Assembly: GCA_030390025.1 (NCBI GenBank)
Contig: CM059432.1
Coordinates: forward strand, 29,142,001-29,206,000
DNA length: 64,000 bases
Source: Squalus acanthias
Lineage: Eukaryota
Direction of reading: 5' to 3'
Both the position numbers and the translations under genes were made by a program. Each line of letters starts with the position of its first letter. Within the stretch, counting starts at the first letter, position 1. Shown here piece by piece: positions 8,266-51,170 of this stretch. Below the pieces are notes generated by a model. It worked only from the letters and a program-made list of their open reading frames with translations, ran no database searches and was not told the origin of the DNA.

Positions 8266-10222
8266 CCCATTCTGTTCTCTTCCCACCATTCCCTCATCTC
8301 ATCTCCTGCCCCCCTCCTTCTCCCACCCTCGTCCTCACTTCCCTGACACATCACAACCCTGGCTGATCTGCTTTTTCAATCTTCCCTTCCTCGCCTTCCA
8401 CAGATCCATGATGGAGATTATCGACCATCGGTAGATCTGGTAATGCCATGAGGTGGAGCTGCTTGTTTTTCGAAGAGGAAACACAGAGCATTGAAACAGA
8501 AGAGGCACTTGCCGTTCCTTTGAACTTTCTGTGAAAGGCTAGTCGCGTAGGCAGCATAAAATATGGATTAAAAGGACCACTCACTCGCACGGATGCATCA
8601 AAGAGGAAAAAGTAGCTCAGGAGAAAATAAATAAAACATGGAAGACAACCCCCTCGATGGACTACTTAGGGGGAGTTTATTTATCACTGTCGGCATTGAG
8701 CAAGTTCTTGAGCTGTCAGAGTGGGAGGGCAGACAATGAGATGCATTCATTGATGAATGAGGCACATTGAGGGGTGGGGCCCCTGGGACCCTGATCCCAG
8801 CGTGGGACTTTCCATTTTATTGCTGTCCTATAGCGAATTCAACCAAACCCAAGAGTTTTTCTTATTTCAGCACACTCCTGCTGGAGAATCACGCTGAAGT
8901 TAACCATGTGTCTGATTCAGCTGCAGCTCAAAGCTGACAAGCTCAATCCTGTTTTCTTTTGTGCTGTGGGGCTCGCGTGTGTTTTGCACTGAGAGGTCAT
9001 TATTCATTGACACCTGGTGCTGTGTGCCTGGCTTTGGTGTCGGTTTGCATGCAGGAGCACATTACTATCAACTGAGTGAGTTGACTGTCGTGGAAGAGCT
9101 TTTATTTGAGAAAAGGACAAACTGTGCTGAGAATGGAGACATCAGTCTTTAAGCTCAAATTGATACAATAGTGGTTGTATTCCATGCAAATACCTCTCCT
9201 CCGTGATGTGTGCATAAGAAGTGTACAACACGTGTCCCCTTTATAACACGACGTATTCTGCACTTGTTTCTGTTATCATTACAGCAGTATTTTAATGCAC
9301 TGTCTTTTAAATGGGATATGTTCATAAGAAAGCATGGAACAAGAAACTGTCATTAGGGCATCTACAGACTATGTAGAGTTCGCTCTGTCATGGGTTGTGC
9401 CCAATCAATGTAAGCCTTAGGCTGCCGGCAGATTCATGGAATGGCATGCATCATGAGCCAACCGATTTTTTAAAGGCTTTCTATTAACAAAATAGTATTA
9501 AATTGGAACTGACTATTACAATAATTTCCTGGCTGGCTTCCTATCTTCCACACTGCATGCAAAACTCTGCTCTAACTCGCACCATTGTAAGCTTTTTATT
9601 TCGACTGGCATTAAATTGACAGCAAGACCAATTCTTTTGAAACAATTTGGAATAAGTTTATTGAACACACACACTCATGCAAGTTTATTAAACACACACA
9701 CTCATGCACATCAAAACAATAGCCTACTGGTATTTATGGACTCTACTCGATTACAACTTGTAAGGCAATGGGTTAGATTTACACAGACTGGTACTTCCCT
9801 GAGTTAAGCAATGCATGCGGCCTATTTCCTTGCTTCTTGGTCTGGTCTGTAGAGGGAGGGTTTCTTGTTCTTCCGCGTGGTCGTCCAGAGAGAGAGAGCC
9901 TTTGGTTCCTTGTTTTTATATCTTTTTAAAGTCCATTGTCTTCTAGTTTAAATTCTTAAGACGCCACGATTGAGTCTTAGATTCATGGCAGTTCTTGATT
10001 GGCTTTCCTTTGAACATGTGTCTGTCTGCAATGGCTGGTGTCATTTCTTGCTTAAGTTAATTGTTTGTTGACACCTTTTAGTGGTTCTTGAGTTTCGATG
10101 GTGAGTTTCGATGGTGTCTCTGGGGGGGGTTATCCTGTTATGCAGGTTTCCTTTGTTAAGTTTCACGCCGTTGCCTTACCCAGGGGAGATCCATACACAT
10201 TAAATTTATCTTTATTACATAT

Positions 10223-11945
10223 TGTAAGGGATTCCTGACCCTGCGTGTCTCGTGGCCTGTGAGATTCACGCGGCTCTGTGCAGCCTGTATGTCAGTGCGG
10301 GTCTAGGCCTTGCTGCCTGTTCTGGTCTCCAGCCAGTCTGGGAACACTAGACACACCTGTGAGTGGTTCGAATCACTCTCCCTTACGGTTCTAGACACTG
10401 GACTTAGATGCGAGAGCAGTAATGGAGATAAAACTCATGTAGACTTGGTTTGAATGGTACGAAATGGAAAATCTTTATTGCATGATACTTAAAATTATGA
10501 AATACATGTCATAAGCACAGATTAATGACAGTACAATCTTACAAACAGTTATGTAGTCGATCTTAGGGAAACGAGGAACGAACGGCACAAAGTAAATAGG
10601 GGCACACATTACAAATATCCTGAATCCTTAAACCCTCCCCTATCAATATCTATCCTAAACTAGATTCGTAGGATCTCGAGACTCATGCTCACCACTCGTG
10701 ATAACTCGGAGAAATTCCGAATAGCTGATCGGATGTTTTTCACCGCAGCACCCACGTGTCGGTCAGGAGATCTCCTGGTCCCACTTGTTTACTTGCTTCT
10801 GCTGCTCCGGCTAGCAGGCTGGACCGTCTGCTGTGATGAAGACCTGTGTTGGTTGGCTTAACAGGTACTCTTCGAACACAGTTGTCAATATCGTCGATAC
10901 GATATGTTTTCACGTTCCAGTTACTTTGGGCACAGTCCAGTTATCATCGATGCAATATGTTTCGTTGCAAGTTCAAAAGAGAAATCTTCCTGGCGAGGAA
11001 AACTTGGCTAATCGACCTACAGGCGCAGTCGGGATTTACTGACCGTGGCGATGGATATGGTCTTCCTCTCTTCTCATCTCATCTCATCTCATCTCATCTC
11101 ATCTCGGGCCTTCGGTTCCGCTGCCAGTTACCAACATAGGTCTTCGTTACGCGACACGAGGTAGATCCGAACGGATCAGAAAATGCAACAGTCTTTTCAG
11201 AAGAGGCAACAGGCAAGCAGAAGCCCAACTACGAGTACACAGGAGCAGCCACGAGGTTACGAATCGACCGGATAAAAGCACAGGAGCCAGCGAGCAAGAG
11301 CAAGAGCGAGAGAGTGAATGGGCGGTTTGGAGCCTGCAATTATAGTGCAAAATCTTCCGTTTCCCGCCCAACTATAATGTCCATTCTTTTGTTTAGGGTT
11401 TGGCGCCCAAATGTCTTGTATGGGTGATCTCCGTTCTTAATGGGTTTCGGGGCTACTCGTAAATGTCTGAGTACCTGTTAATATTTCTCCCATTGTTAAA
11501 TCGGTCGGTGTTCTCCCTGGAGGGGTTTGGGGCTTCCAAGTGTCCTGTATAACTACCTGCTAACGGCTCTCTCATCGTAGAGTCGTTGGGATTTTACATA
11601 TTAATGTCTTTTGGATGGGCCCTTGATTACTCGGTACAAAGGCTTTCCTTTGTACCTGGGAGACCGATTCCAGTATCTATGTTTATACTGCAAACCCATA
11701 ATGTCTCGTGTATTATCTTCACTGTGCTGAATCTTAATCGATCTTGCACAAATGTTTATTGGAACGCCATCTTGTCTGCCTGTTGAAGAGTCTAGAATGT
11801 TCTGTCACGAGGTGCGGCGGCCATTTTACAGGCTGCTTGTGTCCACTTTAAACCTGCCAGCATTCTGCTGAAAATAAAAGCTGTTTGAACGAAACTCTGT
11901 GTTTTCTCCTTATTAACAAAATCGCGATATATTGCGAATTCTACA
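10223..11945 (-). repeat. 3' LTR of the provirus
   Basis: Direct repeat of 17962-19684 (offset 7739); minus-strand AATAAA at 10474-10479; (ATCTC)n microsatellite at about 11072-11105. Confidence 0.97.
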
Positions 11946-11955
11946 GTCCCTCCTG
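11946..11955 (-). promoter_or_regulatory. Polypurine tract (short)
   Basis: Minus strand CAGGAGGGAC directly abuts the 3' LTR start TGTAG. Confidence 0.7.
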
Positions 11956-12395
11956 TTGATGCGAATAACTCCGCTTATCGTATCAAAAATCATAGTGGTG
12001 AGCAATATTATCTCGATTTCTCTCCGAATCCAGTAAATTAATCCCATAATTTTAAATTAGCTAGGGTCTCTGTGTCGTCCTCATTTCCCAAGAAGATTAC
12101 ATTTTATATCACCGTAGGCATTATTTGCCCTTAAACTTACACCACTTGTTTTCCTTCCCGGCGTAACCAGGCCGATGCCTCTCGTATCACCTGTATATTC
12201 ATCTTTTATTCAGGGAAAGGAGAAACAAAACCCAAAACCAAACAATCATTTTTAACTGTAACACCATCACCAAAATAATCAACACCAACTCTTAAAACAT
12301 GTCGAGTTCCCAACGTATTTACAATCTCTGAAAATCATGATTGAGTACAAACTTCCGTGGTGCACGTGGCGAGCGGGAGTGACGCCATTTTCCGA

Positions 12396-14747
12396 TCACA
12401 CGGTGCTTTCATCGTGCACGCGCACGTAACGTTCTCGCCACTCTCCCGTGTTTTCATGCTTGGTGAGGCGCTTGTCTCTTTTACAATGTACGACCAATAG
12501 GTACACTACAATGAAAACTTGGCATACGACTAAAATGTGGGAGGCTATTCTGATCCATGAAGGCACTTCAATATTAGTGAACAGATTCCACCACGGTGGA
12601 ACTACTATATCCAGAATGTCTGTTCCTATTTCGACAGTTTTCTGCTCTAATGTGTAAAAGTGTTTCTGTGACACCGCGACGGCTTTTAAAAGCTTGGTGA
12701 GGTGTTCAGGGAGAGGGGGAATGAGGTATCCAAAATGCGCGACGAATCGCTGCAAGTCGGTGAAATTCTCTTTTACCGTGAGATGAACAGTGGATGGTTC
12801 AGGGATTGGGATAATTCGCTGTTGTGCTACTTGAACTTCCGCCCTGGGTTTAAAACAGAAACTGCTGTCACTCACCGGACACCGGCTACGGTTTCCATGC
12901 TGGTAGTGTTGCGCTGCAGTGGTAACACAATATGTTCCACCCCCGATGTATGCTACCTGCGGAGGCACATGATCTTGTGCCATTGCCTCCATGGTGCAAT
13001 TCATGGACTTGGCGCCAGCCGTTCTGAACCCGCACTGTGGTGTTAAAAAGGCATTCAAGTGCTGGGGGCACAGTATTATGTGTGCTCCCCTGCCACGACA
13101 ACCAGAGAGATCTGTACCTGTCATCGTTTGCTCCCAGCGGATGACGTAAGGTGGAACCGCTGCATAACGAATGTGGGCTCCCCCCTGAATGACACCAATG
13201 TTCTCTACCCGATATACCGGGGCGGGCTTTGCTGTGTCGCCCAAAACCGGCATGCGTAAAACTATACCCATAATGGTATGGTTTGATCGTCCGCAGTCCA
13301 CGGGGACTGGGTATGCTTCTGAAGCTAGCCTGAGCTGGCACGGGCTCAATGCGTTCTGAAAAGGGTGGAGCGCCCGTAGGTGTTTGTTACTTATCCAGGA
13401 CGGAACCAAACCTTGTTTTAAATCCTCCAAATTACTGCGGCCCTCGCCCAGTAACCACGCCCCGTAAAGCACGCACACCTCGTTCTGCGCAGCTTGATCG
13501 GATGCATTCCGATCTTCCCTAATCAGGGCATTTACCGTCTTTGCATGTTTCTCCAACTCTGCTATAATTTCCTTTAAATGGAGGGTCATGGCTTGGTCCT
13601 CGTGTAGACCTGACCCTACCACTTTATTCTCATCTGTTAGAATGTCTTTTAATTGCGTTTTTAGACCATTAATCTGGGTCTGCAGCTCCACACTGTCTAG
13701 AGCGTTGACCACGGATGTACCCGTGTTAAAAGCAGTGAACGCATCGTTCACCAAACCCCTTCTTTGCCTCCCTACTTGATCCAAAACTTCCTGTGGTGCG
13801 GTGTACAAACTTGTTTTATCAATTTCCGCGAAATCGAATTCGTAAAATTGCCTGAACATCTTGGTCAACAGGACCTGGTACAACTGTTCCGTCTTTTTGG
13901 GGCACCACTCTGGTAACCGCACCTCAGTGAGATTTAAAATCACCGAGGCCACCGCGTAATGTACCCCCTGAAATAGTATCTGGTCTGTGGGGACCAGTAC
14001 CAAACCATTCCCGGGTCCCTTACTAGTTTTAGGGCACCCTTCTTCCTCAGCTAGAACCACCGGAATCGTGGGCGGGGCTTTGCGTGGGCGCGTAATGAGC
14101 TCAGTGGCATTTACTGGGATCGGGGAGAATGGGGCTCCGCACCCCCTGGTGCTCGCATCCCACCTCATTCCCTGTCCGTTATCCTGCCATTGATTGATAA
14201 AAAATATGGAGATGCCTTTGGGGCAAACGTACTTTGACCCCCACATACATACATAAATTCCCTCATCCGGTTCCCACCATTTGTCCCAACAGACTTTCAC
14301 TTGTCCGTCTGTCCCCGTAATTGTCCGATGGGTATTATTACCCAGTCGTTCCCACTCGACCGAAGAGTTTCTCATAGTTTTGCTCAGCTTTCGCAGCCAC
14401 CACCATCGGCTCAATGGGACCTTCCCACTACAAGTCAAACAAATCCGTTTGCCGACGGTGACGCTGATCCTGGGTGCGATGATCCTTACTTTGGGGCACA
14501 GTAAAGAAGTCTCTTGGTAGGCAAACCCCGACGTGCTGGAATACTCCGTTGAGTTCGTTCCCAGCCATCCTGGCCACCTTCCCTTGTGGAAATAGGTGCT
14601 GGTCTCCTCTGCCTCCCGTCTTCCGGTCCCATCCACCGCGATGGGGGCCGTGTCCCCGGAACATCCAAACACCACGACATCCTTGGTGCGGCCTCGATAG
14701 GCCAATCCACATCCGATTGCCACGAGCAATACTAGAATTCGTTCCAT
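12396..14747 (-). CDS. env: Envelope glycoprotein, class I fusion protein of F-like type, 783 aa from MERILVLL
   Basis: Signal peptide MERILVLLVAIGCGLA; furin site RQRR/GLV (13758-13769); heptad region; Cys-rich segment; TM ILVVCQVFIVVYLLVV; many N-x-S/T sites; ORF uninterrupted. Confidence 0.88.
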   Translation of the reverse strand: MERILVLLVAIGCGLAYRGRTKDVVVFGCSGDTAPIAVDGTGRREAEETSTYFHKGRWPGWLGTNSTEYSSTSGFAYQETSLLCPKVRIIAPRISVTVGKRICLTCSGKVPLSRWWWLRKLSKTMRNSSVEWERLGNNTHRTITGTDGQVKVCWDKWWEPDEGIYVCMWGSKYVCPKGISIFFINQWQDNGQGMRWDASTRGCGAPFSPIPVNATELITRPRKAPPTIPVVLAEEEGCPKTSKGPGNGLVLVPTDQILFQGVHYAVASVILNLTEVRLPEWCPKKTEQLYQVLLTKMFRQFYEFDFAEIDKTSLYTAPQEVLDQVGRQRRGLVNDAFTAFNTGTSVVNALDSVELQTQINGLKTQLKDILTDENKVVGSGLHEDQAMTLHLKEIIAELEKHAKTVNALIREDRNASDQAAQNEVCVLYGAWLLGEGRSNLEDLKQGLVPSWISNKHLRALHPFQNALSPCQLRLASEAYPVPVDCGRSNHTIMGIVLRMPVLGDTAKPAPVYRVENIGVIQGGAHIRYAAVPPYVIRWEQTMTGTDLSGCRGRGAHIILCPQHLNAFLTPQCGFRTAGAKSMNCTMEAMAQDHVPPQVAYIGGGTYCVTTAAQHYQHGNRSRCPVSDSSFCFKPRAEVQVAQQRIIPIPEPSTVHLTVKENFTDLQRFVAHFGYLIPPLPEHLTKLLKAVAVSQKHFYTLEQKTVEIGTDILDIVVPPWWNLFTNIEVPSWIRIASHILVVCQVFIVVYLLVVHCKRDKRLTKHENTGEWRERYVRVHDESTV

Positions 14748-14760
14748 CCTTCCTTGGTTC

Positions 14761-14780
14761 CTGTGATCAGATAAAATGAG
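14761..14780 (-). promoter_or_regulatory. Candidate env splice acceptor
   Basis: Minus strand CTCATTTTATCTGATCACAG|G, 13 nt upstream of the env ATG. Confidence 0.6.
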
Positions 14781-14924
14781 GTAGCCAGCCTCGCAAGAGT
14801 CTCTGGCTTTTGTGAAGGGTGAGCGGGTCCCCTGACCTCGCCTCACGTAAACTTCAACGTTCGCTGAATAAACTTCAACTAAACCTATCTTTAAAGCTCC
14901 CATCATTTTATCGCTTTCTGTTAA

Positions 14925-14995
14925 AACACTTAAAACTTAACCTTGAACTATAAACTTAAAACTTAACCTTGAACTATAAACTTAAAACTTACAAC
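14925..14995. repeat. Short AT-rich tandem repeat (about 26-nt unit) between ORF-X and env
   Basis: AAACTTAAAACTTAACCTTGAACTAT repeated about 2.5 times. Confidence 0.75.
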
Positions 14996-15035
14996 TTCTT
15001 ACTATACAGTGCCGCCCGTTCTCAGGGCGGCCCCT

Positions 15036-16145
15036 TTAAATTCTGAGAAGGCTGCTGCGAGCTCTTCCCGACGGTGGGAGGGCACTGACCCTTCCCTCTG
15101 ATCTGCCGCAGCCTGTTACTGCTGCGATGTGGCCGGTCTGTACCCGGGTTATCTTAACCTGAATTTTACGCCTTGGGGCAGTCTGGGGACATGACCACAT
15201 CCTCCTGGGCTGGGGTTCTCTACTTGACCTACGGGGAGTTGCTATGGGCGGGGGTTCCGTGACGGACGGACCGGGTTCCGAGACTTCCATCGGGATGACC
15301 TGGGGTTCCATCACAGTCGCCGGCTCCGCCTCCGCTGACTCCGCCTCCCTAACCTCGGGGCTGGCAGTTCGTGGCTCCGCCCTGCTCGGCCCAGCAGGCG
15401 GGCCTTCACTCGTGATCTCTGCCTCCCCTGAGGACTGGACGTTCAAAGCGGGCGGCCACATCTCTGGGAGCCACACCGGTACTCTCTGTGCTCCTATAGC
15501 GGCTGGCCCTGCCTCCTCTAGCTCCTCCCTCCTGTCCTCGGGACCTGCAGCTTGTGTGTCCACCCTGTGTGGATCTCTACCTACAGCCCCCATTCCCTCC
15601 AGACCGTTCCTCAGGAACCACCCGTCATCATCACTATGCTCATCTGCACTATCCTCATCTGACCAGGGTACCCTGAGTTCTTCCTCATCTAACCCCCAAT
15701 TCCAGAAAAACGCTGCATGATCGTCCGGGATGTCCCTTCCCCTGATGCAAGCTGCTATGCCTGCCTGTGTGCCTTGTGGTCCTACCTGGGGCTGTGCTTT
15801 CCCATTGGCGGGATTTACCCCTGTAGTTTTCCCCTGCGCACCTGGCTGGTACAGTTTGCATTGGTTTACATCCTCATACTCCCGGCTTTTGGCTACCCTG
15901 TAGGCTGCTTTTATCTCTCTAAGCTGCTCTTCTAGCCTGAGCACGTCTAACTTTCCCATTGATCGGGCGTTCTCCTCCCGCAGGGCCTGCTCTCTAAGCT
16001 GCCCTTCCAGCCCATCTATTTTCCCTATTAAGCGGGCGTTCTCCTCCCGCAAGGCCTGCTCTTTTAACCTGGCCTCCTCACCGCAGACCCCCTCCTGTGC
16101 GTGTCTTTTAAAAGGACACAGGTAGGCAGGCTGCGTGGGCTCTAG
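15036..16145 (-). CDS. ORF-X: unknown protein (coiled-coil, acidic, then Pro/Glu-rich), 369 codons, in frame with gag
   Basis: Open from the codon after the gag TGA (LEPTQPAYLCPF...) to TAA at 15036-15038; no protease, RT, RNase H or integrase motifs seen. Confidence 0.7.
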   Translation of the reverse strand, partial: LEPTQPAYLCPFKRHAQEGVCGEEARLKEQALREENARLIGKIDGLEGQLREQALREENARSMGKLDVLRLEEQLREIKAAYRVAKSREYEDVNQCKLYQPGAQGKTTGVNPANGKAQPQVGPQGTQAGIAACIRGRDIPDDHAAFFWNWGLDEEELRVPWSDEDSADEHSDDDGWFLRNGLEGMGAVGRDPHRVDTQAAGPEDRREELEEAGPAAIGAQRVPVWLPEMWPPALNVQSSGEAEITSEGPPAGPSRAEPRTASPEVREAESAEAEPATVMEPQVIPMEVSEPGPSVTEPPPIATPRRSSREPQPRRMWSCPQTAPRRKIQVKITRVQTGHIAAVTGCGRSEGRVSALPPSGRARSSLLRI

Positions 16146-17957
16146 TCATTGGGTACTATTAGACGGTCCTGCGGCACCTACGGGGCCGGTTGCGACCGCC
16201 ACCTGTCCACGCGCATTCAAGACCAGCTTGCGCATGGCTCCTAACACTGCTTCGAGGTCGTCGGGAGGGGTGGGTGCCTTGGCTTCCTTAGCCGGGACAG
16301 GCGCCTGGGCTCGGACCGCGGGATTTTTATCCTTGGAATCCTTCCAAGGGTTCCTGCAATGCTTGCGCCAGTGCCCTGTCTTCCCACACCCGTAACAAGC
16401 ATTACTTGCCTGTGGGGCGCGATTACCCTCCTGATGCCACTCTCTTTGATACGGGGCTGCGGGTCGTACCTCATGTACTCTTCCCTTAAGGGGACGTGTT
16501 GCCATACCCCTTATATTGCGATAACCTAACGTGAGTCGATTCAAGACCGACTCTTCCGTAATGTTGGGGTCATTGGGATCAAACCATGCTTTTGCCTGCT
16601 CTCTAACGGCTGGTAAACTGTTGGCTATTATGCACCTAAGCCAATGAGTTAAAGTTAAACCTTCCACATCTTCGCGCTCGGGCGCACCTAGACAGCTGCG
16701 CTCATATACTGGCCACAGCCTGTCGGCAAAAACCTTCGGGGGTTCTCCCTCCATCTGCACTGTCTGTCCCACTCTAGCAAACGGACCTTCATCGTTCGCC
16801 CCCAACACTTCCAGGACCTCGTTCTTTAATTCCTCATAACTCTTGGTTCCCCTCTTGCTCTCGCCTGAGAGACACTGAAGGACCGAGCTGTCTAATGAGA
16901 ACAGCAGCATTTTTGCTGTCTCCCCATCATCGCAGCCGTTAATGGCTGCGGCTTGCTCAACTTCTCTGAAATGTACGGAAGGGTCGTCTATCTCGGTCAG
17001 CTTCCGTACGTGATTTATCATAGCTCTCAGCTGATGTGAACTGTGAGGCAACACCAGCTGTCCGAGGAGATCCCCCGGTTCTTCCCCACCGTTTCTGCTT
17101 GGGCCCCTTTTAATACCCGTTACTGGATACAACGATCCCTTTTCTACTTCCTTTTCAATGGGCTCTTTTGTTTCTTCCATTGCTTCCTCCCTAACCCAGG
17201 TTTCTGAATAGCTGGGTGGCGCGGAGGGCGCAGTGGCTACTACTTCTTCTGCTTTACTTGGTGGGGATTTTCTAAATCTCTCATTTACTAGCGGCTGGTG
17301 CGCCGACGGATTGATAAGGCACACCATGCCGTTCGCATTGTTCACGGCCTTTTTGAGGTGCTCTATCTCCCTTTGGCAGGCGCTATGATCGGCTCCCTGA
17401 AACTTATCCTCAAGGGCCAACTTATATGCCGCCCTAACCCCCATCAAGCTTTCTTCTTGAGTTCTTATCTGGGCAGCTTGGCGGTTACATCTTTCCTTTA
17501 ACCTGCTCTCATTCAATTTTGCCTCAGTGACCTGGCACTCGAGATAATCTATCCTTGTTTTAAGGTGACTGGAGACTTCCTGGCTTTCTTGGTGTAACTC
17601 ATTTAAATTCTTAATGAGCACCTCCCCTCCAGAAACCTTCTCCTCCATTTCTCCCTCTAAATGACTGATTCGAGCTACTAGCGCTGTAATGGTCTGGTTG
17701 GAAATCTGAACCTGCCTTTTGTAACACATAAGCCAGACTGCTTTCTCCAGTGTCTTCCTATGTTCTTTACTTTCTGTCCACCTTTCAGCTGCCTCCAATG
17801 GGCTCTTATCCGCTAACAATTCACTTATCCATTTCTTAGTTAGATTAACCTTTCCAAACACATAATCCGCTATCTTTTCCTGCATAACATTTCGTACAGT
17901 CATTCCAAAATCTAACACACTACCCTCTCGCTGCCAGTGTCCTGCCGCGGTCGCCAT
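16146..17957 (-). CDS. gag: Gag polyprotein, 603 aa from MATAAGHW
   Basis: N-terminal coiled-coil; PSAPPSY late motifs (17208-17228); capsid-like middle region; zinc knuckle CYGCGKTGHWRKHC (16356-16397); ATG in strong context AAAATGG. Confidence 0.9.
   Translation of the reverse strand: MATAAGHWQREGSVLDFGMTVRNVMQEKIADYVFGKVNLTKKWISELLADKSPLEAAERWTESKEHRKTLEKAVWLMCYKRQVQISNQTITALVARISHLEGEMEEKVSGGEVLIKNLNELHQESQEVSSHLKTRIDYLECQVTEAKLNESRLKERCNRQAAQIRTQEESLMGVRAAYKLALEDKFQGADHSACQREIEHLKKAVNNANGMVCLINPSAHQPLVNERFRKSPPSKAEEVVATAPSAPPSYSETWVREEAMEETKEPIEKEVEKGSLYPVTGIKRGPSRNGGEEPGDLLGQLVLPHSSHQLRAMINHVRKLTEIDDPSVHFREVEQAAAINGCDDGETAKMLLFSLDSSVLQCLSGESKRGTKSYEELKNEVLEVLGANDEGPFARVGQTVQMEGEPPKVFADRLWPVYERSCLGAPEREDVEGLTLTHWLRCIIANSLPAVREQAKAWFDPNDPNITEESVLNRLTLGYRNIRGMATRPLKGRVHEVRPAAPYQREWHQEGNRAPQASNACYGCGKTGHWRKHCRNPWKDSKDKNPAVRAQAPVPAKEAKAPTPPDDLEAVLGAMRKLVLNARGQVAVATGPVGAAGPSNSTQ
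17939..17956 (-). promoter_or_regulatory. Primer-binding site, tRNA-Arg(TCG)
   Basis: TGGCGACCGCGGCAGGAC, 5 nt after the 5' LTR; complementary to the vertebrate tRNA-Arg(TCG) 3' end GTCCTGCCGCGGTCG-CCA (recalled from the human sequence). Confidence 0.88.
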
Positions 17958-17961
17958 TTTC

Positions 17962-19684
17962 TGTAAGGGATTCCTGACCCTGCGTGTCTCGTGGCCTGTG
18001 AGATTCACGCGGCTCTGTGCAGCCTGTATGTCAGTGCGGGTCTAGGCCTTGCTGCCTGTTCTGGTCTCCAGCCAGTCTGGGAACACTAGACACACCTGTG
18101 AGTGGTTCGAATCACTCTCCCTTACGGTTCTAGACACTGGACTTAGATGCAAGAGCAGTAATGGAGATAAAACTCATGTAGACTTGGTTTGAATGGTACG
18201 AAATGGAAAATCTTTATTGCATGATACTTAAAATTATGAAATACATGTCATAAGCACAGATTAATGACAGTACAATCTTACAAACAGTTATGTAGTCGAT
18301 CTTAGGGAAACGAGGAACGAACGGCACAAAGTAAATAGGGGCACACATTACAAATATCCTGAATCCTTAAACCCTCCCCTATCAATATCTATCCTAAACT
18401 AGATTCGTAGGATCTCGAGACTCATGCTCACCACTCGTGATAACTCGGAGAAATTCCGAATAGCTGATCGGATGTTTTTCACCGCAGCACCCACGTGTCG
18501 GTCAGGAGATCTCCTGGTCCCACTTGTTTACTTGCTTCTGCTGCTCCGGCTAGCAGGCTGGACCGTCTGCTGTGATGAAGACCTGTGTTGGTTGGCTTAA
18601 CAGGTACTCTTCGAACACAGTTGTCAATATCGTCGATACGATATGTTTTCACGTTCCAGTTACTTTGGGCACAGTCCAGTTATCATCGATGCAATATGTT
18701 TCGTTGCAAGTTCAAAAGAGAAATCTTCCTGGCGAGGAAAACTTGGCTAATCGACCTACAGGCGCGGTCGGGATTTACTGACCGTGGCGATGGATATGGT
18801 CTTCCTCTCTTCTCATCTCATCTCATCTCATCTCATCTCATCTCGGGCCTTCGGTTCCGCTGCCAGTTACCAACATAGGTCTTCGTTACGCGACACGAGG
18901 TAGATCCGAACGGATCAGAAAATGCAACAGTCTTTTCAGAAGAGGCAACAGGCAAGCAGAAGCCCAACTACGAGTACACAGGAGCAGCCACGAGGTTACG
19001 AATCGACCGGATAAAAGCACAGGAGCCAGCGAGCAAGAGCAAGAGCGAGAGAGTGAATGGGCGGTTTGGAGCCTGCAATTATAGTGCAAAATCTTCCGTT
19101 TCCCGCCCAACTATAATGTCCATTCTTTTGTTTAGGGTTTGGCGCCCAAATGTCTTGTATGGGTGATCTCCGTTCTTAATGGGTTTCGGGGCTAATCGTA
19201 AATGTCTGAGTACCTGTTAATATTTCTCCCATTGTTAAATCGGTCGGTGTTCTCCCTGGAGGGGTTTGGGGCTTCCAAGTGTCCTGTATAACTACCTGCT
19301 AACGGCTCTCTCATCGTAGAGTCGTTGGGATTTTACATATTAATGTCTTTTGGATGGGCCCTTGATTACTCGGTACAAAGGCTTTCCTTTGTACCTGGGA
19401 GACCGATTCCAGTATCTATGTTTATACTGCAAACCCATAATGTCTCGTGTATTATCTTCACTGTGCTGAATCTTAATCGATCTTGCACAAATGTTTATTG
19501 GAACGCCATCTTGTCTGCCTGTTGAAGAGTCTAGAATGTTCTGTCACGAGGTGCGGCGGCCATTTTACAGGCTGCTTGTGTCCACTTTAAACCTGCCAGC
19601 ATTCTGCTGAAAATAAAAGCTGTTTGAACGAAACTCTGTGTTTTCTCCTTATTAACAAAATCGCGATATATTGCGAATTCTACA
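17962..19684 (-). repeat. 5' LTR of the provirus
   Basis: Direct repeat of 10223-11945; candidate minus-strand promoter GGGCGG, CGGAAG, TATAAT at about 19078-19108. Confidence 0.97.
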
Positions 19685-19739
19685 ATATTAATAGTCTCGA
19701 GTCCATCACACATACAAAACATATATTTTTATTCTTACA

Positions 19740-20012
19740 CCATGTCCCATTCACCCATTACCCCTGTGCTCACTATCCAACATTGTCTCCCGATCTCCAA
19801 ACGCCTTTATTTTAACATTCTCATCTTTGTTTTCAAATTCCTCCATGGCCTCACCCTTCCCTATCTCTGTAACCTCCTCCAGCCCTACAATTCTCCAAGA
19901 ACTCTGCATTTATCTAACTGCTCTCTTGTCAATCCCCCACTTCCTTCATCCTACCATTGGCGGCCGTGCCTTAAGCTGTCTAGGCCCTAAGCTCTGGAAT
20001 TCCCTCCCTAAG
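19740..20012 (+). mobile_element. L2 LINE 3' fragment (continues from about 9490-9585)
   Basis: HITPVL/FKIL/GGRA.S..GPKLWNSLP-like translation; similar L2 ends at about 42060-42350 and 56455-56790. Confidence 0.75.
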
Positions 20013-35919: not shown

Positions 35920-37680
35920 AAAATTCATTCATGGGATGTGGGCTTCGCTGGCAAGGCTGGCATTTATTGCCCATCCCTTCTTGCCCTTGAGAAAGTGGTG
36001 GTGAGCCGCCTTCTTGAACCGCTGCAGTCCGTGTGGTGAGGGTACTCTGTTAGGGAGGGAGGGAGTTCCAGGATTTTGACCCAGCGACGATAAAAGAACG
36101 GCGATATACTTCCAAGTCAGGATGGTGTGTGACTTGGAGGGGAACTTGGAGGTGGTGGTATTCCCATGCGCCTGCTGCCCTTGTCTTTCTAGGTGGAAGA
36201 GGTCGCGGGTTTGGGATGTGCTGCCGAAGAAGCCTTGGCAAGTTGCTGCAGTGCATCTTGTAGATGGTACACACTGCAGCCATGGTACGCCGGTGGTAGA
36301 GGAAGTGAATGTTTACGGTGGTTAATGGGATATCAATTAAGCGGGCTGCTTTGTCCTGGATGGTGTCGAGCTTCATGAGTGTTGTTGGAGCTGCACTCAC
36401 CCAGGCAAGTGGAGAGTATTCCATCACACTCCGTCAGGACCACTCAGTACCAGACCTCATTACAGCCTTGGTCCAAACATGGACAAAGGAGCTGAATTCC
36501 AGAGGTGAGGTGAGAGTGACTGCCCTTGACATCAAGGCAGAATTTGACCGAGTGTGGCATCAAGGAGCCCTAGTAAAACTGAAGTCAATGGGAATCGGGG
36601 GTGGGGGGGGAACTCTCCACTGGCTGGAGTCATACCTAGCACAAAAGAAGATGGTTGTGCTTGTTGGAAGTCAATCATCTCAGCCCCATGACATCGCTGC
36701 AGGATTTCTTCAGGGCAGTGTCCGAGGCCCAACCATCTTCAGCTGCTTCATCAATGACCTTCCCTCCAACACAAGGTCAGAAATGGGAATGTTCGCTGAT
36801 GATTGCACAGTGTTCAGTGCCTTTCTCAACTCCTCAGATAATGAAGCAGTCCATGCCCGCATGCAACAAGACCTGGACAACATTCAGGCTTCAGCTGATA
36901 AGTGGCAGGTAACATTGGTGACACAGAAGTGTCAGGCAATGACCATCTCCAACAAGAGAGAGTCTAATCACCTCCCATTGACATTCAATGGCATTACCAT
37001 CATTGAATCCCCCACCATCAACATCCTGGGGCTCACCATTGACTATAAGCTTAACTGGACCAGCCACATAAATACTGTGGCTACAAGAGCAACTCAGAGG
37101 CTGGGTATTCTGTGGCGAATGACTCATCTCCTGACTCCCCAAAGCCTTTTCACCACCTATAAGGCACAAGTCAGGGGTGTGATGGAATTCTCTTCACTTG
37201 CCTGGATGAGTGCAGCTCCAACAACACTCAAGAAGCTTGACAAAGCAGCCCACTTGATCGGCACCCCATGCACCACCTTAAACATTCATTCCCTCTACCA
37301 CCAGTTCAAAGTGGCTGCAGTGTGTACCATCTACAAGATGCACTGCAGCAACTCGCCAAGGTTTCCTCGACAGCACCTCCAAACCCGCCACCTCTACATA
37401 GAAGGACAAGGGCAGCAGGTGCCTGAGAACACCACCACCTCCAAGTTCCCCTCCAAGTCACACACCATCCTGACTTGGAAATATATCGCCGTTCCTTCAT
37501 TGTCGCTGGGTCAAAATCCTGGAACTCCCTCCCTAACAGCATTGTGGGAGTACCTTCACCACACAGACTGCAGCGGTTCAAGAAGGCGGCTCACCACCAC
37601 CTTCTCAAGGGCAATTTGGGATGGGCAATAAATGCTGGCCCTGCCAGTGATGCCCACATCCCGTGAGTGAATAAATTAAA
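35920..37680. mobile_element. Two LINE family B pieces fused head-to-head: 35920-36431(-) and 36432-37680(+)
   Basis: Both pieces carry the same 3' tail in opposite orientation; chimeric ORF 36309..37631 with MFADD. Confidence 0.85.
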
Positions 37681-48379: not shown

Positions 48380-51170
48380 CAAATCTAAAGGCACTATATC
48401 TGAATGCATGAAGCATTCGTAATAAGGTAGACGAATTAACAGCACAAATAGATGTAAACGGATATGATATAATTGCAATTACGGAGACATGGCTGCAGGG
48501 TGACCAAGGCTGGGAGCTGAATATCCAAGGATATTTGATATTTAGGAAGGACAGGTGAAAAGGAAAAGGAGGTGGGGTGGCCTTGTTAGTAAAGGATGAA
48601 ATCAGAGCAATAGTGAGAAAGGATATTGGCTCAGAAAATCAAGATGTAGAATCAGTCTGGGTGGAACTAAGAAGCACCAAGTGGCAGAAAACATTAGTGG
48701 GAGTTGTCTACAGGCCTCCAAACAGTAGTGGTAATGTAGGGGATGGCATCAAACAGGAAATTAGAGATGCATGTAACAAGGGTACTACAGTAATCATGGG
48801 TGACTTTAATCTACATATAGATTGGCCAAACCAAATTAGCAATAATACTGTGGAGGGTGAATTCCTGGAGTGTGTATGAGATAGTTTTTTAGACCAGTAT
48901 GTTGAGGAGCCAACTAGGGAACAGGCTATCCTAGATTGGGTATTGTGCAATGAGAAGGGGTTAAGTAATAATCTTGTTGTGCGGGGTCCTTTAGGGAAGA
49001 GTGACCATAACATGATAGAATTCTTCATTAAAATGGAAAGTGAAGAAGCCCAATCCGAAACTAGGGTCCTAAATCTAAACAAAGGAAACTACGATGGTAT
49101 GAGGAGTGAGTTGGCTATGATAGATTGGGGAGCTTCATTAAAAGGCATGACAGTGGAATGAATGCATGAATTGCAACAGTTATAGATTCCTTTCTGGCAC
49201 AAGAACACAAAAGGAAAAGTGGCCCAACCATAGCTAACAAAAGAAATTAAGGATAGTATTAGATCCAAAGAGGAGTCATATAAAGTTGCCAGTAAAAGTA
49301 GCAAGCCTGAGGATTGGGAGCAGTTTAGAGTTCAGCAAAAAAGGACCAAGAGATTGATTAAGAGGGGAAAAATAGAGTATGAGAGTAAACTTGCAAGGAA
49401 CATAAAAGCGGATTGTAAAAGCTTCTACAAGTATGTAAATAGAAAAAGATTAGTGAAGACAAATGTAGGTCCCTTACAGTCAGAAATGGGAGAATTTATA
49501 ATGGAGAACAAAAAAATGGCTGAGCAATTAAACAAATACTTTGGTTCTGTCTTCACGGAAGAGGACACAAATAACTTCCCAGAAATGCTAGGGAACCAAG
49601 GGTCTAGTGAGAAGGAGGAATTAAAGGAAATTAGTATGAGTAAAAAAATAGTGCTGGAGAAATTAATGGGACTGAAAGCTGATAAATCCTCAGGGCCTGA
49701 TAATCTGCATCCCAGAGTACTAAAAGAGGTAGCCATGGAAATAGTGGATGCATTGGTTGTCATCTTCCAAAATTCTATAGATTATGGAACAGTTCCTGCA
49801 GATTGGAGGGTGGCAAATGTAATCCCACTATTTAAAAAAGGAGGGCAAGAGAAAACAGGGAACTATCGACCGGTTAGCCTAACATCAATAGTAGGAAAAA
49901 TGCTAGAGTCTATTATAAAGGATGTGATAACAGGACACTTAGAAAATATCAACGGGATTAGACAAAGTCAACATGGATTTATGAAAGGGAAATCGTGTTT
50001 GACAACCCTACTGGAGTTTTTTGAGGATGTAACTGGTAGAATAGATAAGGGAGAACCAGTGGATGTGGTGTATTTGGATTTTCAGAAGGCCTTTGATAAA
50101 GTCCCACATAAGAGGTTAGTGTGCAAAATTAAAGCACATGGGATTGGGGGTAATATACTGGCATGGATTGAAAATTGGTTAACAGACAGGAAACAGAGAG
50201 TAGGAATAAATGGGTCTTTTTCGGGGTGGCAGGCGGTGACTAGTGGGGTACCACAGGGATCAGTGCTTGGGTCCCAGCTATTCACAATATATATCAATGA
50301 TTTGGATGAGGGAACCAAATGTAGTATTTTCAAGTTTGCCGACGACACGAAACTAGGTGGGATTGTGAGTTGTGAGGAGGATGCAAAGAGGCTTCAAGGC
50401 GATTTAGACAAGTTGAGTGAGTGGGCAAATACATGGCAGAAGCAGTATAACGTGGATAAATTTGAAGTTATCCACTTCGGTAGGAAAAACAGAAAGCTAG
50501 AGTATTATTTAAATGGTGATAGATTGGGATATGCTGATATACAAAGGGACCTGGGTGTCCTTGTACACCAGTCACTGAAAGCAAACACGCAGGTGCAGCA
50601 AGCAGTTAGGAAGGCAAATGGTATGTTGGCCTTTATTGCAAGAGGATTTGAGAACAGGAGCAAGGATGTCTTACTACAGTTGTACAGGGCCTTGGTGAGA
50701 CCACACCTGGAGTACTGTGTGCAGTTTTGGTCTCCTTACCTAAGAAAGGATATACTTGCCATAGAGGGAGTGCAGCGAAGGTTCACCAGACTGATTCCTG
50801 GGATGGCAGGACTGTCGTATGAGGAGAGATTGGGTCGACTAGGCCTGTATTCACTAGAGTTTAGAAGAAGAGAGGGGATCTCATTGAAATGTATAAAATT
50901 CTGACAGGGCTAGACAGACTGGATGCAGAGAGGATGTTTCCCCTGGCTGGGGGGTTGAGAACGAGGTGTCACAGTCTCAGGATACGGGGTAGGACATTTA
51001 GGACTGAGATGAAGAGAAATTTCTTCACTCAGAGGGTGGTGAACCTTTGGAATTCTCTACCACAGAAGGCTGTGGAGGCCAAGTCACTGAATATATTTAA
51101 GAAGGAGATAGATAGATTTCTAGACACAAAAGGCATCAAGGGGTATGGGGAGAGAGTGGGAAGATAGTAT
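48380..51170 (+). pseudogene. CR1 ORF2 (APE endonuclease and reverse transcriptase), with stops and frameshifts; 516-aa open RT stretch at 49354..50904
   Basis: [33 protein letters not shown] and FADD motifs. Confidence 0.92.

Follow-up and report, generated by a model that had tools for sequence, protein, structure and literature searches.

A recently amplified, high-copy, non-autonomous gag+/env+ ERV derivative that has lost its enzymes was identified in a 64,000-nucleotide stretch of Squalus acanthias DNA, hereafter the window. The element is assigned to this class because it carries no enzymes, has LTRs, gag and env in common with a full-length partner, is represented by 865 junction matches and has LTRs that are 99.8% identical to each other. 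What is new is that an enzyme-less ERV derivative keeps what is probably a Gag-Pol readthrough into a lineage-specific tail of Pol, and that this arose twice independently.

Pol-deleted ERVs are usually viewed as plain defectives. The natural deletions described here can be read as a genetic screen, in which two families shed all enzymes and kept the leaky stop together with the same in-frame downstream piece. Since the same piece was kept in both families, the elements would need something in the Pol tail or in the act of translating it. Should the tail turn out to be a delivered protein, retroviral accessory genes would gain a new location; should its translation be all that matters, the elements would provide a natural test of readthrough as a protection against NMD. 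The family would also bring the UGA-CUAG context to retroviral readthrough, and its amplification is both very recent and large in scale (~1,800 junction matches).

Anatomy of the provirus and composition of ORF-X

The long open frames of the provirus are three: gag, ORF-X (369 codons, hereafter X) and env (Table 1). The gag frame spans 18041-16146 (-) and ends in ...ACC CAA TGA, with the TGA at 16148-16146; from ATG to TGA it measures 1809 nt in most X copies. Gag comprises a coiled-coil N-terminal region, a capsid region and a single CX2CX4HX4C knuckle, and among named Gags the nearest is a skate protein that contains zf-CCHC (51% identical). The gag ATG is located 5 nt past the LTR end (17939-17961 (-)), within the PBS, so that the packaging signal must sit within either the LTR or gag. 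tRNA-Arg(TCG), the primer tRNA, is present in highly amplified form: 427 matches to its 3' end were found genome-wide, hundreds of them in 1.6-kb tandem arrays at G000 C26 ~39.0-42.2 Mb.

The Env fusion subunit is long (~450 aa downstream of RQRR), in an architecture suggestive of a Mononegavirales F protein (PF00523). Searches of PDB and Pfam with Env gave nothing above cut-off, and the surface part gave a weak immunoglobulin-domain match under the cut-off (Pfam Ig_3, E 0.12-0.45). A TTCAG at 14863-14865 (-) resembles an env splice acceptor and two contigs stop at 14850 and 14861, which is a weak hint. Two further long open frames of the window, 440 and 556 codons, lie in dispersed repeats at 36309-37631 (+) and 49234-50904 (+), and Rfam gave 0 matches over positions 10000-20000.

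Table 1. Features of the provirus in the window (positions are those of the window)
Feature	Position	Strand	Remarks
Provirus, 9,462 bp		-	Flanked by 4-bp ATAT target-site duplication
5' LTR, 1723 bp, TG...CA	17962..19684	-	99.83% identical to 3' LTR, 3 mismatches
3' LTR	10223..11945	-	1,723 bp
Primer binding site (PBS), complementary to tRNA-Arg(TCG)	17939..17956	-	18 nt; same 3' end in genomic tRNA-Arg(tcg) genes
gag, 603 codons	16146..17957	-	ATG at 17957; PBS overlaps this ATG
Gag-Pol junction of the family, TGA-CTAG in leaky-stop context	16142..16148	-	Also upstream of protease in full-length copies
X codons 1-23, diverged copy of pol 5' end with predicted stem-loop	16077..16145	-	First 31 nt align to pol start; remainder placed by column
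X codons 24-91, copy of Gag coiled-coil segment with internal 23-24-codon tandem repeat	15873..16076	-	
X codons 93-369, Pol post-integrase tail	15036..15869	-	99% identical to full-length Pol C-terminus, 39-nt repeat aside
IAAC motif, predicted protease site 1	15747..15758	-	Like IAAV of RNase H-integrase boundary; motif fitted post hoc
IAAV motif, predicted protease site 2	15117..15128	-	Within 39-nt repeat
env, intact	12396..14936	-	783 aa from ATG 14747, starting with signal peptide; furin site (RQRR) at 13769; TM anchor

A search with gag's C-terminal half gave 125 scored copies at 99-100%, and 40 regions were fetched around a hand-picked subset of them; 34 were of the full-length type and 6 of the X type. 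In the full-length type the frame after TGA-CTAG extends over ~1500 codons and reaches the common end in 25 of the 34 regions. In a full-length relative, Pfam gave the domain order PR-RT-tether-RH-IN (from protease and RT over the tether to RNase H and integrase), and the partner has the LTR-gag-pol-env-LTR organisation, PBS and TSD of a Retroviridae-like ERV. Exact junction patterns matched 865 X-type and 961 full-length-type sites, the two types being 98-99% identical outside the replaced block. Many copies are in tandem with a common LTR, at periods of ~7.7 kb (X type) and ~11.1 kb (full-length type), for example at G000 C12:63178855/63186555, C1:143657949-143673413 and C22:50762694/50773821. 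In two copies (L098 and L110) the integrase-end/tail segment is longer or duplicated with the frame kept, and in a third (L059, 8579-9982) env is interrupted by an LTR in opposite orientation, 73-79% identical to that of the family, which points to a further related family.

The original prediction presented X as an unknown ORF, encoding a novel protein in place of Pol. Instead, 277 of the 369 codons proved to be the C-terminus of the family's own Pol: the element has a pol minus its enzymes, into which a copy of the Gag coiled coil was inserted, and the tail is already carried by full-length Pol. X aligns to the full-length pol frame over the first 31 nt after the stop, which have diverged, and over the last 277 codons, and its middle block matches the Gag coil; X is thus pol with the enzymes swapped out. 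The three segments come from different sources and each is in its native frame. For the coil, a natural X variant with a single repeat was aligned without gaps to four Gags at 12-15 of 44 identical residues, a level reached by 0-3 of 2000 shuffles, although these values are optimistic because residue shuffles lose the heptad periodicity. An AAY motif stands in register in all four Gags, and the Pol and Env controls were negative. The anatomy is near certain, and the origins of the segments are shown as well.

A pattern search for other continuations of the junction, made for the donor of the Gag-like insert, returned nine matches, eight of them X variants and one a deletion to the LTR; in the two known Gags compared, DNA identity to the insert was only 60 and 68 of 132. 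Capture of a host gene was rejected as the origin of X, with no homologue among 8000 candidates scored (lengths 202-646) and Atlas matches of 0.81 at most, as was the lokiretroviral smc gene, which sits upstream of gag. Against Pfam, X gave only a sub-threshold coiled-coil match.

The Gag-X junction

The sequence at the junction is as first described: gag ends CAA TGA CTA G, the same frame stays open for 369 codons to a TAA at 15038-15036 (minus strand), and the fusion protein would measure the 973 amino acids given (603 + 1 + 369). A check suggested in the original prediction concerned the autonomous relatives, and in these the frame beyond TGA-CTAG encodes an aspartyl protease (DTG motif), then RT, RNase H and integrase, which supports readthrough strongly. 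The stop is TGA in all of the 100 X-type junctions listed (774 matched), and in the family the UGA-CUA hexamer stands in frame with a required downstream ORF. UGA-CUA is an established type II readthrough context, and the list of retroviral readthrough sites in the available part of the same review names UAG contexts, UGAAGA, UGACGA and UGAAGU, with UGACUA absent (PMC13517186). As full-length copies have no evident way of making their enzymes other than readthrough, and the context is an established one, the junction is likely to leak in X elements too, and by this analogy readthrough at the X junction very probably occurs. Since the X frame is open in most copies and follows the junction of the full-length relatives, a minor Gag-X fusion seems likely, and the element is likely still to make a Gag-tail fusion at low level.

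The hairpin proposed just downstream of the stop fared less well. The stem described is indeed the minimum-energy fold of the 70 nt past the stop (-28 kcal/mol), but it stands only modestly above chance, given that 7 of 200 shuffles fold equally well (z -2.0). A homologous stem in the full-length junction has a z of -2.2 and four other junction types range from -1.4 to 0. The fold is without significance in the sister family and in an older X type, and the consensus fold of 15 junctions consists of a short invariant stem with little covariation.

The Pol tail and its retention

In full-length Pol the tail begins directly past the integrase end motif, which is followed by 287 residues, whereas in the ten related Pols where this motif could be located, 4-27 residues remain beyond it (SnRV Pol lies outside this comparison). 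The tail is missing from the frog and coelacanth relatives. It is rich in Pro, Glu and Gly, with an acidic middle, a basic end and 20% hydrophobic residues, and is likely disordered; no homologue of note was found in Pfam, among sequence-database candidates or in Atlas. A motif of the IAA[C/V] type, defined post hoc, has four occurrences in Pol and none in Gag; those in Pol are at the protease-RT boundary, at the RNase H-integrase boundary and at two sites flanking ~210 residues of the tail. These last two could be protease cleavage sites, and the tail itself is likely an unrecognised accessory protein.

Selection on the X frame was studied in a sample of 40 of the first 100 X junctions listed, in chromosome order, with 78-99% identity to the window. 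Disruption of the frame in most other copies had been named as evidence against the original prediction; X was open to its shared end in 38 of the 40, the remaining two carrying a 2-nt deletion and an insertion of 840 nt that disrupt it. For comparison, gag was intact in 27 of 36 scorable copies of this sample. Of the indel events, 18 of 19 in X kept the frame, compared with 10 of 35 in the spacer that leads to env (Fisher p 2e-6), with a +11/+22 pair in X scored as one 33-nt replacement, events that are not fully independent and repeat slips that are in frame by construction; the single out-of-frame event was seen in one copy only. For 355 shared tail variants, counted in the 38 open copies only, ~12.9 stops were expected and none was observed. 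The tail has a dN/dS of 0.82-1.14 in nine of nine pairs, so its residues are without net purifying selection, and its conservation is patchy; values for gag are 0.20-0.32 (last 330 codons, seven pairs) and those for the X-specific cassette are mixed (0.21-1.58, few changes). The cassette is 89-99% identical among copies while flanking gag is 77-99% and the tail 72-99% identical, and the tails of young X copies are 97-100% identical to full-length tails. Because young X tails track full-length tails in this way, recombination accounts for part of the open-frame pattern, and much of the open frame may have been inherited from full-length Pol by recombination and not selected in X. By its open copies, in-frame indels and missing stops, the X frame looks selected.

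A sister family, found by a search with a 43%-identical Gag, has independently lost the enzymes and kept the tail in frame. Among the 20 copies fetched, pol follows the junction in 7, another 12 belong to the short type and 1 is without the junction. In the short type TGA-CTAG is kept and is followed by remnants of protease and of the linker between RNase H and integrase, and the tail is attached in frame at the same NQCKL point; the full-length sister copies use UGA-CUG. An open frame survives in only 3 of the 12 short copies. When one open copy is taken as the reference, each of the 13 frameshifts is confined to a single copy, and the two indels that copies share both keep the frame, a pattern to be expected from an open replicating form whose copies decayed after insertion. 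The last 71 residues of the tails of the two families are 38% identical (E 8e-8), and the tails have short motifs in common. The primer site of the sister family has a different sequence.

The explanation we prefer, and rate as just on the probable side, is that the tail protein is the selected product of X and that the element keeps readthrough in order to make Gag-X. Pol would have lost protease, RT, RNase H and integrase, with the TGA-CTAG junction and the last 277 Pol codons kept in one frame. Low-rate readthrough, suggested by the homology to the Gag-Pol junction and by the type II context, would then yield a Gag-X protein arranged as Gag, stem peptide, coil and tail, which would co-assemble via its Gag part and be packaged with Gag. 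Helper Pol would mobilise the element in trans, and helper protease would release the tail, by cuts at the IAA[C/V] motifs, as an accessory protein that evolves fast. The likely reason for retention would be that mixed Gag pools dilute Gag-Pol and that Gag-X maintains the dose of tail in particles. A wider proposal is more doubtful, namely that the lineage encodes its accessory protein as a protease-flanked Pol tail, which would change quickly in the manner of an arms race with the host, that continued production of this protein is the sole reason why two pol-less parasite families each retained the readthrough signal on their own, and that one of them added a second Gag coiled coil in front.

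Translation of X could matter instead of its protein, if readthrough ribosomes clear UPF1 from the 1.1 kb past gag and thereby stabilise their own genomic RNA in cis. An open frame with a dN/dS of about 1 is the signature to be expected from this, cis benefits are what selection on non-autonomous elements acts on, and readthrough below 1% and the UGA-CUAG context are both described as lowering NMD in the available part of PMC9661723. We consider it unlikely, however, as more than 3 kb of env and LTR remain beyond the X stop, deletion of the tail would be a simpler way to shorten the 3' region, short motifs have lasted between the families and the Gag-derived coil holds its register. Hitchhiking, in which the tail is an integrase end selected only in full-length elements, recombination refreshes the gag and tail of X and Gag-X is a harmless by-product, would agree with the near identity of young X tails to full-length ones, with the occurrence of the cassette on diverged backbones and, again, with a tail dN/dS of about 1. 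It appears about as unlikely, since the frame is kept, too, in non-homologous events that are specific to the short elements (both families' founding joins, a further breakpoint within integrase at +153, the -9 and -6 events and the 33-nt replacement), and it does not explain why the tail is open in full-length Pol.

Expression of X with no readthrough, either from a spliced RNA with an acceptor near 16096-16106, as proposed earlier, or from an internal ATG (e.g. codon 185), is highly improbable. AG dinucleotides are present at these positions, as described, internal ATGs occur as well, and SnRV offers a precedent in its spliced accessory mRNAs (PMC12193657, available in part). The acceptor site differs in full-length copies, though, the Met at codon 185 is variable among subfamilies, and splicing would give no reason for codons 1-23 to remain open in the gag frame. 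The sequence is carried by 14 sequencing runs, none recorded as RNA and 8 of them guessed to be so, in which contig depth is unsuitable for ranking genes. In four presumed RNA runs the contigs span the junction without splicing, and 16096-16106 is not the site of any of the 15 joints shown (3 more exist beyond these), which leaves the proposed acceptor without support.

Relation to known retroviruses

The RT tree comprised 49 rows, 47 chosen sequences and one copy per family, and was midpoint-rooted; it holds no named reference viruses, SnRV being absent. The RT falls within a 38-row retrovirus clade (100/95), apart from Ty3/Gypsy and Loki-type rows, and groups with frog and coelacanth Pols at only 80/89. 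The family is likely SnRV-like. The primer of SnRV is tRNA-Arg. Like SnRV, as portrayed in the accessible text of PMC2717909, the family has gag and pol in one frame with a stop between them, a coiled-coil Gag N-terminus and one zinc knuckle, and its RT motifs LDISNGFWS and LPQGFH.SP.IFHQ match by eye those of the SnRV RT in the supplement of PMC7947760 (seen in part). SnRV-like ERVs have been reported in a cartilaginous fish (PMC4422223, in part). The family differs from SnRV in its stop, UGA-CUAG in place of UAG-GGC (PMC13517186, available part), and from SnRV and SnRV-like elements, including chicken Ovex1, in its 1.7-kb LTR and its abundant pol-less derivative.

An in-frame stop between NC and protease is also found in MoMLV and WDSV (gamma- and epsilonretrovirus), and the best PDB matches of the family's RT are MLV-type and foamy RTs. 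The family differs from these viruses in its type II UGA-CUA context, which is that of alphaviruses in the available part of the review cited above, and in the readthrough product of the short element, which is without enzyme. In CrocERV29, a crocodilian KIT-ligand capture, extra coding sequence between pol and env is likewise held open (PMC4299795, available in part); that of the present family differs in being an in-frame extension of Pol or Gag, for which no host homologue could be detected and which needs readthrough. ERV4 has a 5-bp TSD and a Gag without zinc finger, whereas the present family has a 4-bp TSD (one insertion) and a CCHC knuckle. No description of the family, tail or derivative was found in the literature searched, part of it in excerpt; Repbase and Dfam lay outside this search, so a repeat-library entry, or the ERV tables of PMC10435555, may list the family.

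Assignment to the lokiretroviruses was rejected, as the RT lies outside the Loki-type clade (rows recognised by motif) and is without the RCPFGY.NSPAEF motif. Lokiretroviruses and the Bhikhari elements Bik-1 and Bik-2 resemble the family, according to the portion available of bioRxiv 2024.03.25.586437, in the coiled-coil Gag N-terminus, the long fusion subunit past RXXR and the trans-mobilised pol-less derivatives. In contrast to the present gag and env, however, Bik elements are described as gag only, and the smc gene of Loki precedes gag. An F-protein-like Env paired with a non-Loki Pol would be unusual.
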